From NCBI GenBank assembly GCA_036395755.1, contig DASWCZ010000079.1, positions 6,363-70,362 of the forward strand: a stretch of 64,000 bases of DNA, given 5' to 3'. The notes beneath the pieces are model-generated. The model saw only the letters and a program-made list of their open reading frames with translations. It ran no database searches and was not told where the DNA came from. Below, piece after piece: positions 2,995-15,469 of this stretch. The translations under genes and the position numbers were made by a program. Within the stretch, counting starts at the first letter, position 1, and every line of letters starts with the position of its first letter. This DNA comes from Thermoanaerobaculia bacterium. Lineage in GTDB: Bacteria; Acidobacteriota; Thermoanaerobaculia; UBA5066; Gp7-AA6.

Positions 2995-4188
2995 TCAGAT
3001 CCGCCGCGACCAGGCGAGGAGATCCACCGCGAGCGTACCGGCCATCCGTCCCCGCGCGGAGTCGTTCTTCAGAAGATCTTCGCGGGGGCCCGCGAGGACC
3101 GCTTCCCGGACGAGCCACGTTTCGCCGTCGTGCACGTCAACGCGCAACGAAAACGATCCCACGCGGCCGTCGCCGTAACGCCGCTCGACTTCGAGGGTCC
3201 GTCGGTCGGGATCGGGCCTGACGTCTTCCTCGAAGCCCGCCTCCGCCATCCCCGGAGGCGAGAGCCGGAAGTGCCAGCCCTCCCCCGTCACGTCGGAGAC
3301 GCTCTCCATCAGCCGCCGGTACCCCTCCGGGCTCGCAACCGCCCGGAACGCTTCCTCCGGACCGGCGTCGACCGAGAGATACGCCGCGATGCGCGCGTCG
3401 GCGATCTCGGGGGCCGGGTCACCCGCGATCGAGAACGCGCGGCGCAAAACTCCCTCTTCGATGCCGAAGAGCTCCGCGAGCTTGCCAGGGCGGTCGTCGG
3501 AAATCGGGATTCGCGTCCGCGTGTGCCGGTCGTCCACCCGCACCTCGCCGCGCGAGAACGTCGCGACCCGCGCGGCGTGGCGTCGTTGGAGCGAGACGTT
3601 TCGAAGGAACTTCGAGTCCGGCCGGAACGTGCGCCGCCAGTGGTCGAAGAACTCTTCCTCCGAGACGGGATCGCGGAAGACTTCCAGGTGGCGCGGCCCG
3701 TCGGGAATGCCCGAGGAGAACCGGACGAGCGTCCCCCGCTCGCTTTCAGCGGCCGACAGACCGAGGACTTCCGTCTCGACCTCGCCCCCGCAGGCCGGCA
3801 CGAGCGCCGGCAGCGGAAACCCGACGTCGGCGATCCACTCCTTCGCCCCGATCGAGATGAGGAGCGCGGCGTGGTCGAAGTCCTTCTCGACCCGTCCGAG
3901 CGCCTTCCGCGTCGCGAAATCGAGCTCGCGGGCGAGCGCGTCGAACGCGGCGACGCGAGCGTAGCAGGTCCCGCCGGTTCCTCTTTCGAGGAAGTCGCGC
4001 CAGAAAACGTCGGGAGTTCGGGGCCCGGCCGCCGGATCCGCGACGTCCGCGTTCCGAAGGATCTTCGAGGCGGTCTCGAACGGCACGCGCGCGAGGAACC
4101 GGCGGAAGAGCGTTTCCAGGAACTCGGTGGACGGCGGTTGCCCGGAGAGCTCGAGCGCGTCGAGCACGTCCTCGAGCGGGAGACTCAC
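2995..4188 (-). CDS. Arylamine N-acetyltransferase (NAT)-family protein with a ~120 aa C-terminal extension
   Basis: RGTGGTCYARVAAF (catalytic Cys region) and HAALLISIGAKEWIADVGFP resemble NAT motifs. GTG start overlaps the upstream stop (GTGA). Confidence 0.45.
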   Translation of the reverse strand: MSLPLEDVLDALELSGQPPSTEFLETLFRRFLARVPFETASKILRNADVADPAAGPRTPDVFWRDFLERGTGGTCYARVAAFDALARELDFATRKALGRVEKDFDHAALLISIGAKEWIADVGFPLPALVPACGGEVETEVLGLSAAESERGTLVRFSSGIPDGPRHLEVFRDPVSEEEFFDHWRRTFRPDSKFLRNVSLQRRHAARVATFSRGEVRVDDRHTRTRIPISDDRPGKLAELFGIEEGVLRRAFSIAGDPAPEIADARIAAYLSVDAGPEEAFRAVASPEGYRRLMESVSDVTGEGWHFRLSPPGMAEAGFEEDVRPDPDRRTLEVERRYGDGRVGSFSLRVDVHDGETWLVREAVLAGPREDLLKNDSARGRMAGTLAVDLLAWSRRI

Positions 4189-4942: not shown

Positions 4943-5530
4943 TCAGGCGGTCCTCTGCGCGAAGCGGCGCGGGTCGAACGCGAGCTCGTGCACGGTCGCA
5001 TCGGACGTCAGCTCCGGGTGGAAGGTCGCGGCGATGACGTTTCCAGAGGCGACGAGCACCGGCTCGGAGTCGCGTGTCGCGAGCACCTCGACGCCGGGGC
5101 CGACCCGGCGGATCCGGGGCGCGCGGATGAACACCGCCGGAAGGGCTCCGCCCAAACCCGGCGCGTCGACCTCGCCCACGAACGAGTCGACCTGGCGGCC
5201 GTAAGCGTTTCGCTCGACCGTGATGTCGAGCAACCCGAGCCCGTTCTGCGCCGGATGGGTGACCTCGCGCGCGAGAACGATCGCGCCGGCGCACGTCCCG
5301 AGGACCGAGCGGCCAGTCGCCGCGAAGCGACGGATGGCGTCCTCCCACGGCGCCGACTCGAAGAACTTCCAGAGGGTCGTCGACTCGCCGCCGGGAACGA
5401 CGAGCCCCGTTGCGGGTTCGAGGTCTTCCGGCCTCCGGGCCTCGAACGAGTCGAGCCCCATCTCCCTGAGCCGCCGGCCGTGGGCCGCGAAGTCGCCCTG
5501 GAGAGCCAGGACCGCGATTCCGACTTTCAC
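4943..5530 (-). CDS. pdxT: Pyridoxal 5'-phosphate synthase glutaminase subunit PdxT
   Basis: MKVGIAVLALQGDFAAH...GTCAG...ATFHPEL; GTG start; class I glutamine amidotransferase triad context. Confidence 0.85.
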   Translation of the reverse strand: MKVGIAVLALQGDFAAHGRRLREMGLDSFEARRPEDLEPATGLVVPGGESTTLWKFFESAPWEDAIRRFAATGRSVLGTCAGAIVLAREVTHPAQNGLGLLDITVERNAYGRQVDSFVGEVDAPGLGGALPAVFIRAPRIRRVGPGVEVLATRDSEPVLVASGNVIAATFHPELTSDATVHELAFDPRRFAQRTA

Positions 5531-5681
5531 CAGCCCCTCCCCTGCATGCGCGCTTCGAGTTCACCTGTCATTCCGAGGGCCGCAGGCCCGAGGAATCCGC
5601 TCCCTGTCGAAGGCGCGGCCGAGATTCCTCGCTTCGCTCGGAATGACGGAGTCACCAGCCTCTCCCCTGCATGCGCGCTTC
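5528..5681. mobile_element. MITE-like 96-nt extended-hairpin element (5557-5652; arms GTCATTCCGAG/CTCGGAATGAC, inner CGAGGAATC/GATTCCTCG) flanked by 29-bp direct repeats CACCAGCC(C/T)CTCCCCTGCATGCGCGCTTC (5528-5556 and 5653-5681)
   Basis: Read directly. The left repeat carries the pdxT GTG start and the right repeat the pdxS stop, i.e. a duplicated pdxS/pdxT junction. Confidence 0.55.
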
Positions 5682-6542
5682 CTCCGGAAGACTCGCCGCT
5701 TCGATGCCCTTCATCCCGGTGCCGAGCGACTCCTCGGCCTCCACGAGCGCGTGCGCGTCCTGCCAGTGCGTCGTCGCTTTCACGATCGCGCGCGCGCGAA
5801 GCGCGGGATCGTCCGACTTGAAGATCCCGGAGCCGACGAAGATCGCCTCGGCGCCGAGCATCATGCAGAGCGCGGCGTCGGCCGGCGTCGCGACGCCGCC
5901 CGCGGCGAAGTTCGGCACGGGCATCCGGCCGCTCTCGGCGACTTCCTCCACGAGCTCGAACGGCGCAGCGAGGCGCTTGGCCTCGCGCATCCGTTCGTCC
6001 TTGCTCATCAGCGTCAGGTTGCGGATGTCGCGGTGCACTTCCCGCAGGTGCTTGACGGCGTGAACGATGTCGCCGGTGCCCGCCTCCCCCTTCGTGCGGA
6101 TCATCGCGGCGCCCTCGCCGATCCGGCGCAGTGCCTCCCCCAGGTTGCGGCAGCCGCACACGAACGGCACCGTGAAGTCGTGCTTGTAGACGTGGTTTTC
6201 CTCGTCGGCCGGAGTCAGGACCTCCGACTCGTCGATGAAGTCCACCTTCAGCGCCTCGAGGATCCGGGCCTCGGCGGCATGGCCGATCCGGCATTTCGCC
6301 ATGACGGGTATCGACACCGCCTCCTGGATCTCGCGGATCTTGGAGACCGGCGACATCCTCGCGACTCCCCCATCGCGGCGGATGTCCGCCGGCACGCGCT
6401 CGAGCGCCATGACCGCCGCGGCCCCTGCGGCTTCCGCGATGCGCGCCTGTTCGGCGTTGACGACGTCCATGATGACGCCGCCCTTCAGCATCTCGGCGAG
6501 CCCCACCTTGACCCGATACGAATCGGAATCGCTTCGCCTCAT
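5652..6542 (-). CDS. pdxS: Pyridoxal 5'-phosphate synthase lyase subunit PdxS
   Basis: Full-length match to the PdxS/SNZ signature (GGVIMDV...AEAAGA...KCRIGH...[11 protein letters not shown]...GTG...[14 protein letters not shown]). Confidence 0.9.
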
Positions 6543-8475: not shown

Positions 8476-9095
8476 CGCTCTCTTCCCGCGAGCAATTCGC
8501 CGGAGAGCGGATGCCGGAAGAGCTGTTCGATGACCGACGTGGAGATCGCGGCGACGTCGGCGCCCATCAGCGCCGCGTCGAGCACGTGGATCGGGTTGCG
8601 CAGCTCCGAGACCACGATCTGCGTCTGGAAGCCGTAGTTGTCGTACACGCGGATGATCTGCTCGACCAAATCCATGCCGATCGAGCCGACGTCGTCGAGC
8701 GCGCCCACCGCGGGAGCCACGTAGCTGACGTTCGATTTCGCCGCGATCAGCGCCTGCGCGGCGGAGTAACAGCCCGACGCGCAGACGGCGACCTGATCCT
8801 GCGCGAGCAGCCGCGCGACCCGCATTGCCTCGGGCTGCGCGGGTAGCTGCACGACGATGTCCTTTCCGAGCTTCGCGAGCTCGCGCGCCTCCTTGTACAT
8901 GCCCTTCGCGTCGGTCGAGACCGGACCGACGCAGACCGGGCCGTCGGTCAGCGAAGAGAGCTCGCGGGCGGCGCGACGTAAGTCGACCCCGGCCTTCTGA
9001 GCGGCCGCCGCGGAGAGCCAGACGCCGTCCAGAAGGCCCCACTCCCGCACTCTTTTCGCCTCATCGGCGATCGCGCTCTCGAGGAAAAACCGCAT
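8472..9095 (-). CDS. tal: Short-form transaldolase / fructose-6-phosphate aldolase family (TalC/Fsa-like, ~207 aa)
   Basis: MRFFLESA...MYKEARELAKLG..IVVQLP...VAPAVGALDD: typical short transaldolase family layout. Confidence 0.8.
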   Translation of the reverse strand: MRFFLESAIADEAKRVREWGLLDGVWLSAAAAQKAGVDLRRAARELSSLTDGPVCVGPVSTDAKGMYKEARELAKLGKDIVVQLPAQPEAMRVARLLAQDQVAVCASGCYSAAQALIAAKSNVSYVAPAVGALDDVGSIGMDLVEQIIRVYDNYGFQTQIVVSELRNPIHVLDAALMGADVAAISTSVIEQLFRHPLSGELLAGRER

Positions 9096-9189
9096 GGGTG
9101 GCGGGGGATTCTACCCCTCACCCTTTTCGCACAGGCTCCGCGGCGAATCCCTCGGGCCTCTCGGGTGAGTTCGTCCTCGGGATCGCGAC

Positions 9190-11838
9190 TTAAGGGAGGT
9201 CCTCGTCCAAGAACGGAGTGGGTTCCCCCATTCCTTTGGACTTGGGCCCAGGGTTCAGAGTCTGATCTCCGGTTCCGGGCAGCGCCGCCTGGGGCTCGTC
9301 GTCGTTCTCGTCCGGCTCGGCGAGCTTCGCGACGGCGACGACGCGGTCCCCTTCGTCCAAGTTGATCAGCCGGACCCCCTGGGCGGCGCGGCCCGTCTCC
9401 CGGATGTCTTTGACCTTGATCCGGATCAGCATCCCGCTCTGCGTGATGAGAAGGAGCTGGTCGACGTCGGTGACCGACTTGATGCCGGCGACTGGACCGT
9501 TCTTTTCGGTGACCTTGATGTTGATCACGCCGGAGCCGCCGCGCGCCTGGAACCGGTACTCGGACGCCTCGGACCGTTTCCCGTATCCCTTCTCGGTCAC
9601 CGTCAGAAGATGGCCGTGCTCCTCGACGACTTCCATCTCCACGACGTAGTCGCCGTCTTTCTTGAGAGCGATGCCCCAGACCCCCGTCGTGTCGCGGCCG
9701 GTCGGACGCACGTCGGTCTCCGCGAAGCGGATGCCCTGTCCGAGGTGGGTGCCGATGAAGATCTGGCGTGTTCCATCGGTGACGCGTACGGAGAGGAGCT
9801 CGTCCCCATCCTCGACGTTGATCGCGATGATCCCGCCGGAGCGGACGTTCGAGTACGCCGAGAGGGCGGTCTTCTTGACGAGCCCCTGTCGGGTCGCGAA
9901 GACGAGGTACTGGTCCTCCGGGAAGTCCTTCGTGGAGGCGAGCGCCACGACGCGCTCGTTCGGATCGAGGTTCAGCAGGTTGACGATCGCCTTACCGCGC
10001 GTGGCCGGGCCGAGCTGCGGGACCTCGTACACCTTGATCCAGTGCATCCGGCCGCGCGAGGTGAACGCGAGTATGTAGGCGTGCGTCGAAGCGACGAAGA
10101 GGTGCTCGACCACGTCCTCTTCCTTCGTCGTCGCGCCGATGCGGCCTTTGCCGCCGCGCCGCTGCGCGCGGTAGAGGGACAGGGGAGAGCGCTTGATGTA
10201 ACCGCCGCGGGAGACCGTGATCACCATGTCCTCTTCGACGATCAGGTCCTCGATGTCGATGTCCGACGCTTCCGCGATGATCTCGGTCCGGCGCTCGTCG
10301 CCGAAGAGTTTCTTCGCCTCCTGGAGCTCCTCGACGATGATCTCCAGGACGAGATTCTCGGACCCGAGGATCTCGCGCAGCCTGGCGATGAGCGCGAGCA
10401 CTTCCTGGAACTCGGCGACGATCTTTTCGCGCTCGAGTCCCGTCAGCCTCTGCAGGCGCATCTCGAGGATGGCCTGCGCCTGGACCTCGTCCAGCCGCAT
10501 GACGTCCTCGCTCTTCTTTCCTTTCGCCGGCGTGTCGCCGAGCTTCACTCCAGTGAATTTCTCGAGGCCCGCGCGCGTCATCGAGACTTCCGAGATCAAC
10601 CGTTCCTTCGCTTCCTTCGGGTCCTTCGATCCGCGGATGATCTTGATGACGAGGTCGATGTTCGCGAGGGCCAGCGCGAGGCCGCGCAGAAGGTGCGCGC
10701 GCTCCTCCGCCTTCTTGAGGTCGAACTGGGTGCGCCTGATGACCACCGACTTGCGGTGATCGATGAAGTGGCGCAGCAGGTCGGCGAGCGGGAGGATCTT
10801 CGGCTGGTTTTCGACGATCGCCAGGAAGATGATCCCGAAGGTCGACTGCATCGGGGTGAGCGCGTAGAGCTGGTTCAGGACGACCTGGGCGTTCTCCCCG
10901 CGCTTCAGCTCCACGACGACCCGGATTCCCTCGCGGCTCGACTCGTCGCGGAGGTCGGCGATCCCCTCGATCTTCTTTTCGTTGACGAGCTCGGCGATCC
11001 TCTCCACCAGCTTCGCCTTGTTGACCTGGTAGGGGATCTCGGTCAGGACGATCGATTCCTTTTCGCCGCGCGCCGCCTTTTCGATCACGGCCCGGGCGCG
11101 GACCTGCACGATGCCGCGGCCCGTTTTGTACGCGTCTCGAATCCCCTGGGCGCCGTGGATGAAACCGGCGGTGGGGAAGTCCGGGCCCTGCATCTTGCGC
11201 ATCAGCTGCGAAAGCGAGGCGTCGGGGTGCCGGATGAGCTCGATCGTCGCGTCGACGACCTCGCCCAGGTTGTGCGGCGGGATATTCGTCGCCATGCCGA
11301 CCGCGATGCCCGAAGATCCATTGACCAGAAGGTTGGGAAACTTGGCCGGCAACATCGTCGGCTCGACGAGCGAGCCGTCGTAGGTGGGCACCCAGTCGAC
11401 GGTCTCCTTGTCGATGTCCTCGCCGATCAGCTCCGCCGCGAGCCGCGTCAGGCGAACTTCGGTGTAGCGCATGGCCGCTGCGTTGTCGCCGTCGACCGAG
11501 CCGAAGTTGCCCTGTCCGTCGACGAGCGGATAGCGCATCGAGAAGTCCTGCGCCATCCGGACGATCGAGTCGTACACGGAGCCTTCGCCGTGGGGGTGGT
11601 ACTTGCCGAGCACGTCTCCGACGATGCGGGCGGACTTCTTGTACGGCCGGTTGTGGAAGTTGCTCTGCTCCCACATGCCGTAGAGGCAGCGGCGGTGGAC
11701 CGGCTTCAGCCCGTCGCGGACGTCGGGCAGCGCGCGGCCGATGATGACCGACATCGCATAGTCGAGGTAAGACCGGCGGACCTCGTCCTCGATCGTGACG
11801 GGGACTTTTTCTTCGGGGGTCAGGAGGTTCGGGCTCAT
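9190..11838 (-). CDS. gyrA: DNA gyrase subunit A
   Basis: N-terminal [25 protein letters not shown]-terminal beta-pinwheel repeats, acidic C-terminal tail. Confidence 0.95.
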
Positions 11839-11850
11839 TTATTCACGGAC

Positions 11851-11934
11851 CCCGCAGTCATTCCGAGGAGCGCAGCGACGAGGAATCTCCTCGGCGCAAG
11901 AGATCCCTCGCCGCGCTCGGGATGACCCTTCGGG
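11851..11934. repeat. Second copy of the long GTCATTCCGAGG...CGAGGAATC hairpin element, filling the gyrA-gyrB intergenic region
   Basis: gtcattccgagg...cgaggaatctcctcg...ctcgggatgac; the arms pair with 1 mismatch. Confidence 0.5.

Positions 11935-15469
<3,535 letters not shown>

Follow-up and report, generated by a model that had tools for sequence, protein, structure and literature searches.

A REP-type hairpin dimer caught as a live insertion/deletion polymorphism on the overlapping pdxS/pdxT junction of Thermoanaerobaculia

We analyzed a 64,000-nt stretch of the genome of an uncultured soil bacterium of the Thermoanaerobaculia (contig DASWCZ010000079.1; hereafter the window) in which a short, hairpin-forming repeat is inserted on the junction between the pyridoxal 5'-phosphate (PLP) synthase genes pdxS and pdxT, all features of which are read on the reverse strand. 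The pdxS gene (5652..6542) encodes the 296-aa PLP synthase subunit, and pdxT (4943..5530) encodes the 195-aa glutaminase subunit. Both assignments rest on an open reading frame (ORF) and on a domain found in the identical protein (PF01680 SOR_SNZ and PF01174 SNO, respectively), and the presence of these two domains in adjacent, co-oriented genes identifies the pair as a PdxS/PdxT PLP synthase operon. Homologues of PdxT are named PdxT by their sources, the nearest named ones coming from Thermoanaerobaculia metagenome-assembled genomes (MAGs). The junction is framed by two 30-nt direct repeats that match at 29/30 positions (97%) by repeat finder and start 125 nt apart (5527-5556 and 5652-5681). 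The upstream copy (GAAGCGCGCATGCAGGGGAGAGGCTGGTGA, 5652..5681) comprises the last 9 pdxS codons and the TGA stop (5654..5652), and it also holds a GTG (5655..5653) that opens a bridging ORF discussed below. The downstream copy (GAAGCGCGCATGCAGGGGAGGGGCTGGTGA, 5527..5556) holds a Shine-Dalgarno-like GGAGG, the GTG start of pdxT (5530..5528) and the TGA that closes the bridging ORF. An earlier, sequence-only reading of this DNA had already placed the pdxS stop in one repeat and the pdxT start in the other, as the ORFs confirm; the repeats it described as 29 bp long with 28/29 matches are a real pair, but one of 30 nt. An equivalent direct-repeat pair arose in 0/100 shuffles, and the 30-mer was found exactly twice and the 25-nt left module of the insert once in the 64-kb window, where shuffles predict 0 for each.

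Between the repeats lies a 95-nt insert (5557..5651), which has no counterpart in the empty alleles described below (L001, L003-5, L007, L010, L229, L230, L232 and L254). It opens with a CTCC leader (5648..5651), the final C of which completes a CGTC tag; this leader is 4 nt long in alleles of one element type (A-type) and 12 nt in those of another (B-type). The left (L-) module follows (GTCATTCCGAGCGAAGCGAGGAATC, 5623..5647), a hairpin of the repetitive extragenic palindrome (REP) type with an ATTCC/GGAAT stem, tandem G-A pairs and a GCGAAGC mini-hairpin. A variable spacer of 25 nt (5598..5622; 17 nt in B-type alleles) separates it from the right (R-) module (GATTCCTCGGGCCTGCGGCCCTCGGAATGAC, 5567..5597), an inverted REP-type hairpin with the inner stem-loop GGGCC-TGC-GGCCC. 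The last 10 positions (AGGTGAACTC, 5557..5566) form a tail that is derived from the element and not from the target, being common to the junction alleles and to a copy at an unrelated locus (L190). In the window, the outer inverted arms (GTCATTCCGAG/CTCGGAATGAC, 5567-5577 and 5637-5647) and the inner ones (CGAGGAATC/GATTCCTCG, 5589-5597 and 5623-5631) are each 100% complementary. The nested hairpin of 96 nt that had been proposed is thus correct in its arms, but the insert measures 95 nt with an 81-nt core, and the wider family conserves the two hairpins separately. Folded as RNA, the core reaches -42.2 kcal/mol (z -3.46; 0/200 shuffles as good), and as DNA -25.1 (z -3.76), but the stability of the full 154-nt span is ordinary (z +0.64). 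The window allele was found in the independent assemblies L011 and L012 and is therefore not an assembly artefact. No promoter or terminator was found within the element, no terminator-like site (a GC-rich hairpin with a U tract) in 5300-5900, and no plasmid match to the 155-nt region by blastn. In Rfam, the element had no match at E<=10, and the whole window had none at gathering score. A weak match to the ASdes sRNA within pdxT coding sequence (5054-5115, reverse strand), which scores 25.5 bits where the gathering score is 40, most likely arose by chance in GC-rich sequence.

The comparison with close relatives showed that the element is present in some genomes and absent from others. A lookup of the exact PdxS sequence returned ten contigs with the common gene order gyrA-tal-(hyp)-pdxR-pdxS-pdxT-ech. 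In six with identical PdxS (L001, L003, L004, L005, L007 and L010) the site is empty, with a single 30-mer and with the pdxT start lying 4 nt before the end of pdxS, so that stop and start overlap in GTGA. L011 carries the filled allele of the window, and L002 and L008 carry three 30-mers and two elements with a 125-nt period, the "spacers" of these two-unit alleles being near-identical copies, as tandem duplication would give. L006 and L009 have a related element with a downstream 30-mer copy of only 13-16 nt. A metagenome scan for the pdxS 3' end added a more distant lineage, E, with empty (L229, L230, L232) and filled (L231, L233) alleles whose flanks are 99.0-99.3% identical. Contigs sharing one identical lineage E PdxT were also empty (L254), single (L256) or at least double (L255). 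The filled allele is the empty site plus the 95-nt element, with the final 30 nt of pdxS directly repeated, and both the pdxS and pdxT ORFs are intact in it, as the sequence-only reading had proposed. Populations hold 0, 1 and 2 tandem 125-nt units, and given that these alleles occur on the same backgrounds, the polymorphism is a genuine insertion polymorphism and the ancestral junction was a stop/start overlap, which the earlier reading had likewise deduced; the single-copy site that it expected in relatives was found, including presence and absence between 99% identical flanks. In the lineage E double allele, the middle 30-mer bears the downstream-copy variant, and this, together with 0, 1 and 2 units on identical or 99% identical backgrounds in lineages A and E, fits unequal recombination between the repeats.

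Further junction alleles were reached through PdxT homologues. In lineage F (L246, L250-253) the element is A-type, and the two copies of its 30-nt duplication differ at 2 positions; in lineage G (L248, L249) a B-type element of 95 nt has a 12-nt leader, a 17-nt spacer and a 30-nt duplication with 4 mismatches. Lineage I (L245) has a different dimer joined to the old right end, with a duplication of 27-31 nt and 3-4 mismatches. In all five lineages with a duplication of about 30 nt (A, E, F, G and I), the right boundary, directly after GGTGA, and the orientation are the same. The insertion had been described as recent, which holds for some lineages but not for others, given that the same architecture occurs where pdxT is only about 80% nucleotide-identical to that of the window and the copies differ by 2-4 mismatches. 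The truncated copies (13-17 nt) of B, B' and C have the appearance of deletion products. Removing exactly 15 nt from the A-type right junction gives that of B', and the two have the downstream-copy variant GAGGGG in common.

Other inserts also occur at the junction. In lineage H (L247 1152-1200), only a 23-nt head-tail hairpin (GTCATCCCGCTCCTCAGGATGAC) follows the pdxS stop, with a duplication of about 6 nt (GACGCC). In other Thermoanaerobaculia (L243 544-620, L244 109-200, L245 1201-1260), a different palindromic repeat, CCCTCTCCCC..GGGGAGAGGG, lies in frame directly after GTGA and reads ..SPRARGEGQGEG.. or PHPGPLPEGEG, so that PdxT gains an N-terminal extension of 14-28 aa. The presence of this different repeat at the same place makes the junction a hotspot for several repeat families.

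The sequence-only reading had called the insert a MITE-like mobile element (MITE, miniature inverted-repeat transposable element). It does belong to a dispersed repeat family, but it consists of two REP-type hairpins in inverted orientation and is part of the TGTC/CGTC-tagged REP superfamily, with a layout like that of REPINs (REP doublets forming hairpins) and BIMEs (bacterial interspersed mosaic elements), and not a demonstrated MITE. The left module, GTCAT-NNN-GAGCGAAGCGA-NNN-ATC, was found in 96 viral-contig stretches. The right module, GATTCCTCGGGC...TCGGAATGACA, was found in at least 119 stretches of species-representative genomes, mostly of Acidobacteriota, with further hosts in Gemmatimonadota, Chloroflexota, Proteobacteria, Deinococcus, Synergistaceae, Clostridiales, Saccharimonadales, Nitrospinota and Verrucomicrobiota. 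The family is multi-copy, with 99 distinct dimers in the fetched loci, and the window itself holds two dimers plus a decayed copy, seen at the orthologous gyrA-TAL spacer. Stem pairing within each module is strongly conserved: the NNN stem triplets of the L-module are Watson-Crick in 96/105 distinct family copies and comprise 8 triplet types, and among distinct dimers the own-module stem is Watson-Crick in 95/99 and 98/99 (the latter for the R-module). Left-right pairing is perfect in 45/99 dimers for the outer arms and 44/99 for the inner arms. What the family conserves is two independent inverted hairpins (an ATTCC/GGAAT-type stem, a tandem G-A step and a GC-rich mini-hairpin), not one long nested hairpin. 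The base before GTC is T in 184/202 L-modules and 418/465 R-modules (~90%); in the window, it is C before the L-module (CGTC) and T before the reverse-complemented R-module (TGTC).

The CGTC-tagged REP superfamily is characterized by an unpaired CGTC/TGTC (also CCTC) tag, an 8-9-bp stem that starts with A-T pairs, a 4-5-nt loop and a short tail; its members, among them Neisseria dRS3 and Rickettsia RPE-4/-6, are mostly dimers and lack a dedicated transposase, and the paper describing it raises the question of whether copies are still being formed (Di Nocera, De Gregorio and Rocco 2013, PMC3733652). Our element resembles this superfamily in its unpaired tag at one end, CGTC on the L-module of the window and TGTC on the R-module, and in part in its stem, which opens A-T, T-A. 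The L-module stem (ATTCCGAG / CGAGGAAT around CGAAG) has 8 positions, two of them G-A, with a 5-nt loop and then a short tail, broadly similar to the stem of 8-9 positions in the superfamily. Like the superfamily, these elements occur mostly as inverted dimers with 20-100-nt spacers, just 3' of ORFs, in several phyla and with no dedicated transposase. The fit is nonetheless imperfect: the stem has two G-A mismatches, the R-module has an inner hairpin of 11-15 nt in place of the 4-5-nt loop, and the tail is CTC/CTG where that of the superfamily is CCA. The hosts are Acidobacteriota, Gemmatimonadota and others, unlike the mainly alphaproteobacterial superfamily, and the published description includes neither a 30-nt flanking duplication nor a live presence/absence polymorphism, both of which are found here. 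The two inverted REPs with a short spacer, the size of about 100 nt, the intergenic or operon-internal position and the separate conservation of each hairpin also recall the REPINs and BIMEs, which are mobilized by the tyrosine (HUH) transposases called RAYTs (REP-associated tyrosine transposases; Bertels and Rainey 2011, PMC3116915). REPINs, however, bear tags of the GTAG type and are accompanied by a cognate RAYT with the same REPs on its flanks, whereas our element has a (T/C)GTC tag, and no RAYT flanked by its modules was found in the available DNA, about 1.9 Mb of fetched loci. We found no mention of "target site duplication" in the REPIN/RAYT papers listed, and a literature search for the exact module sequences gave only chance primer matches.

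Candidate partner enzymes were looked for in the same loci, in which only 2 GIY-YIG and 2 Y1-transposase matches occurred. A GIY-YIG nuclease is not supported as a general autonomous partner, since the small gene lies between or beside dimers in L097 and L180 but has only those 2 matches in ~1.9 Mb. These genes are YhbQ/UPF0213-like (L180 1600-2340; L097, reverse strand, ~940-1445), the one in L180 being flanked on both sides by near-identical dimers. A RAYT/Y1 transposase is likewise not supported, as the two matches are weak and a different repeat, CCCGCCCTTGA..TCAAGGACGGGG, flanks the gene that was examined (L182). It is a 177-aa IS200/RAYT-like Y1 transposase (3256-3789, reverse strand) with the HUH motif MPNHIHLL, adjoining a tRNA gene about 200 nt from a family dimer.

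Family copies elsewhere show several composite forms. Full dimers in L051, L074, L035, L095, L117, L157, L180 and L245 have "stuttered" ends with periods of ~20-27 nt, made of partial heads upstream (GTCATCCTGAGC plus ~8 nt) and partial tails downstream (CTCGGAATGAC plus 12-16 purine-rich nt); the pdxS 3' end (GCATGCAGGGGAGAGGCTGGTGAC) resembles one stuttered tail unit. In the Gemmatimonadota MAG OBJ2_061818_070_14 (L128, L135, L195, L213, L225), dimers lie between inverted GTGAGAA / TTCTCAC heptamer arrays that lengthen the palindrome by tens of bases. A very uniform composite of ~190 nt, in which the dimer is nested in a second inverted repeat (..GCTGCGGAAAAAGTACTTTTT [dimer] ..GAGTTTTTCCGCAGC..), occurs in Acidobacteriota (L118, L127, L129, L136, L200, L207-L209, L212, L218, L226 and others) and is near-identical over many MAGs, one of them labelled Saccharimonadales.

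The sequence-only reading had concluded that the insertion uncouples the translation of pdxS and pdxT, which is probably wrong. A bridging ORF of 42 codons plus stop (5527..5655) runs from the pdxS stop to the pdxT start and overlaps each of them in a GTGA, and equivalents exist in other alleles with an intergenic insert. Overlapping stop and start codons are known to mediate translational coupling (review, PMC12548453). The GTGA of the empty site has this form, and the filled alleles keep 4-nt overlaps at each link, with the difference from the standard case that passage would be through one or more bridging ORFs encoded by the element. A limited literature search found no description of coupling through the bridging ORF of a repeat insertion. 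Relay ORFs joined by 4-nt stop/start overlaps occur in 9/10 intergenic-insert alleles (A, Ax2, E, F, G, B, B', C and H). The bridging ORF has 42 codons in A, E, F and G, the two-unit allele has two such ORFs, and in B and B' there are 37 codons, the indels of both being 15 nt long and preserving the frame. In allele C, two ORFs joined at the ATGA within GAATGAC reach pdxT, and in allele H an 18-codon ORF is joined to a new pdxT ATG that overlaps its stop. Alleles J and K have the different palindromic repeat in frame as a PdxT N-terminal extension. A relay requires that element plus duplication equal 2 mod 3 and that the frame be open. We considered that relay ORFs might be a general trait of spaced gene pairs, but rejected this, as among the 9 qualifying pairs in the window only gyrB-gyrA has one, where 0.52 would be expected. 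From the reading frames, the insertion apparently keeps pdxS-pdxT translational coupling, and the pattern is suggestive of selection maintaining termination-reinitiation coupling at the junction, a case that is weakened by the non-independence of the alleles.

How often the element arrived at this site is the question on which the interpretation turns. We lean toward a recurrent, site- and orientation-specific insertion of REP dimers with a 30-bp target duplication, followed by repeat-mediated loss and gain and tolerated through the bridging ORF, and we judge this somewhat better than an even bet. The dimer would have entered the pdxS/pdxT site repeatedly, always in the same position and orientation. 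The target would be opened by nicks about 30 nt apart, one fixed just after GGTGA and the second 30 nt upstream on the other strand, and fill-in would give the duplication. The flanking 30-nt repeats would later permit precise loss, and tandem gain through unequal recombination. The insertion would be tolerated because 95 + 30 nt equals 2 mod 3 and one frame is open, which yields the bridging ORF; ribosomes terminating on pdxS could reinitiate at the overlapping GTG, translate across the hairpins as far as the duplicated TGA, and there begin again on pdxT.

The evidence for repeated arrival comes from the distribution of element types and from the repeats themselves. On the pdxT tree, A-type elements occur in A, E and F and B-type elements in B, C and G, so that element types are incongruent with their hosts, and outside the conserved modules A-type copies are identical at 32-36/39 positions, compared with a four-fold-site identity of 0.72-0.74 in the flanking genes. 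Homologous-recombination import of the filled allele into lineage E was ruled out, because no donor-type SNP tract adjoins the element within -37..+188 nt of the junction. Each downstream 30-mer is nearest to the upstream 30-mer of its own lineage (1, 1, 2, 4 and 4 mismatches, against 3-8 between the downstream copies of different lineages), with upstream and downstream copies concordant in lineage-specific states at positions 3, 5, 9, 10 and 24. Own-lineage pairing has the minimum total distance among the 120 possible pairings, with a tie only on the E/F swap, where the upstream copies are identical. At the extreme 5' edge of homology, a crossover should be unable to transfer upstream-copy states into the downstream copy, and the own-lineage matching, which includes such edge positions, therefore favors repeated de novo duplication of a 30-bp target.

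Several observations weigh against this interpretation. Tail-bearing copies are all at the pdx junction except that of L190, a related copy directly after a gene's TGA at another locus. No second A-type copy was found; the sole match to a four-frame chimeric query of the protein collection was the two-unit allele's antisense ORF. Inserts of A-type and of B-type alike measure exactly 95 nt and have the right half and tail in common, which looks like common descent, and the identity of the B and G elements (24/39) is about that of the neutral flanks (0.57), as vertical inheritance predicts. In a scan of 82 complete L+R elements at the viral and genome-scan loci, with the pdx junction left aside, flanking direct repeats were not above control except within tandem arrays. 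No transposase or nuclease was consistently linked to the family in the ~1.9 Mb. Relays also arise by chance: fixed-length shuffles give one in 0.43 (A), 0.30 (G), 0.33 (B) and 0.09 (C), the frame condition being a further factor of 1/3, the relay alleles are not fully independent, and in allele I the relay has a 13-nt gap followed by a mini-ORF, MQGRGW*, that overlaps the pdxT start.

The insert size, the restriction of the tail, the B-G divergence and the 82-element scan together lead us to keep a single ancient insertion as a serious rival, although we consider it the less probable account of the number of insertion events. Under it, one insertion with one 30-nt duplication in the ancestor of the Thermoanaerobaculia lineages concerned would have descended vertically, with repeated loss between the repeats, occasional swaps of the left half and homogenization of the 30-mers by gene conversion. 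The filled alleles are indeed all alike in site, orientation, 125-nt unit, tail and conserved R-module; the recombinant B' combines a B-type left half with an A-type right half, and the copy-number polymorphism shows that repeat recombination is active. Yet this account requires at least 7 parallel upstream/downstream changes, including those at edge positions 3 and 5, which we infer to be beyond the reach of crossovers. It also leaves A-type and B-type alleles each common to distant host lineages, and the 1-4 mismatches between copies are unlike the prediction of a single age. An unlikely alternative is replication template switching without a transposase, in which the nascent strand would leave after GGTGA, copy a REP dimer elsewhere and return 30 nt upstream. 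This would give an ectopic segment flanked by a duplication of local sequence, GTGA also precedes the L190 copy and makes 4 nt of microhomology available, and hairpin-forming repeats are known to stall replication forks (PMC3733652); the return junction, however, has no visible microhomology, and the same two switch points would be needed again, to the nucleotide, in several lineages. That the hairpin evolved in place as a cis-regulatory RNA for pdxST (an attenuator, stabilizer or sensor) and is not mobile DNA is highly improbable and largely refuted by the empty alleles, since very close relatives lack the element wholly. Its core is significantly structured, and it is operon-internal and kept in many lineages, but its modules also turn up in unrelated settings across many phyla and in viral contigs, with no Rfam match and no terminator-like U tract.

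There is also a bolder reading, to which we give only tentative credence: REP dimers of this superfamily may still be mobile, integrating at a defined nucleotide and orientation with a fixed 30-bp duplication (three helical turns), and insertions at the junction may survive only if the overlapping-ORF relay is rebuilt. We know of no such chemistry for REPs, REPINs or bacterial MITEs. The target duplications of MITEs are short, fixed and set by the transposase of the parent insertion sequence (IS). Our element is like the bacterial MITEs (Correia, ERIC/IRU, RUP) in being small and non-coding, with terminal inverted repeats in the window copy, a target duplication and presence/absence between close relatives, but it differs in the 30-nt length of the duplication and in terminal arms that are not conserved as a pair, and a search for a parent IS, which was not exhaustive, found none. 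Long direct repeats, of variable length, are made by IS1634/IS1549-type ISs, casposons duplicate ~14 bp, and Cas1-Cas2 spacer integration duplicates a repeat of 28-37 bp. By analogy only, a duplication of tens of bp as in these systems implies widely staggered strand attacks; no IS1634-type transposase, cas1 gene or CRISPR features were seen with the element. REP-type repeats are among the commonest non-coding repeats of bacteria. The junction in soil Thermoanaerobaculia supplies empty, single, double and decayed sites in near-identical natural genomes, a rare record of the gain and loss of a repeat with no known transposase, and its unusually long and reproducible target duplication constrains the mechanism. 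It also shows a compact coupled gene pair absorbing a structured insertion with both ORFs kept and, apparently, their coupling as well.

A second dimer of the same family (11857..11926, reverse strand) lies in the window between the gyrB stop (11937..11935) and the gyrA start (11838..11836), beginning 8 nt after the gyrB stop. This spacer measures 96 nt in the window and 109 nt in L234, whereas L235 has a deletion derivative of 51 nt, and all three variants have a full gyrB-to-gyrA chain of mini-ORFs with stop/start overlaps, for which the chance is 0.13, 0.53 and 0.08, respectively. Neighboring spacers of related contigs hold further family copies, all variable between lineages. In the gyrA-tal spacer, a decayed copy lies directly after the gyrA stop in the window (9095-9192; orthologous L237 4610-4745, where the clade A sequence is degenerate, GCGATCCCGAGG..CCCGAGGGATTCGC), a full dimer is present in L234 (7300-7440), and only the tail in L235 (7070-7165). 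The convergent spacer between an MBL-fold gene and a Tricorn protease gene holds a different long palindromic element in each lineage (L235 13914-14054; L237 11713-11951; L239 6199-6291) and none in L234, with palindromes such as GGGGTCAGGTCT...AGACCTGACCCC or GGGGACAGATTTATTTAA...TTAAATAAATCTGTCCCC.

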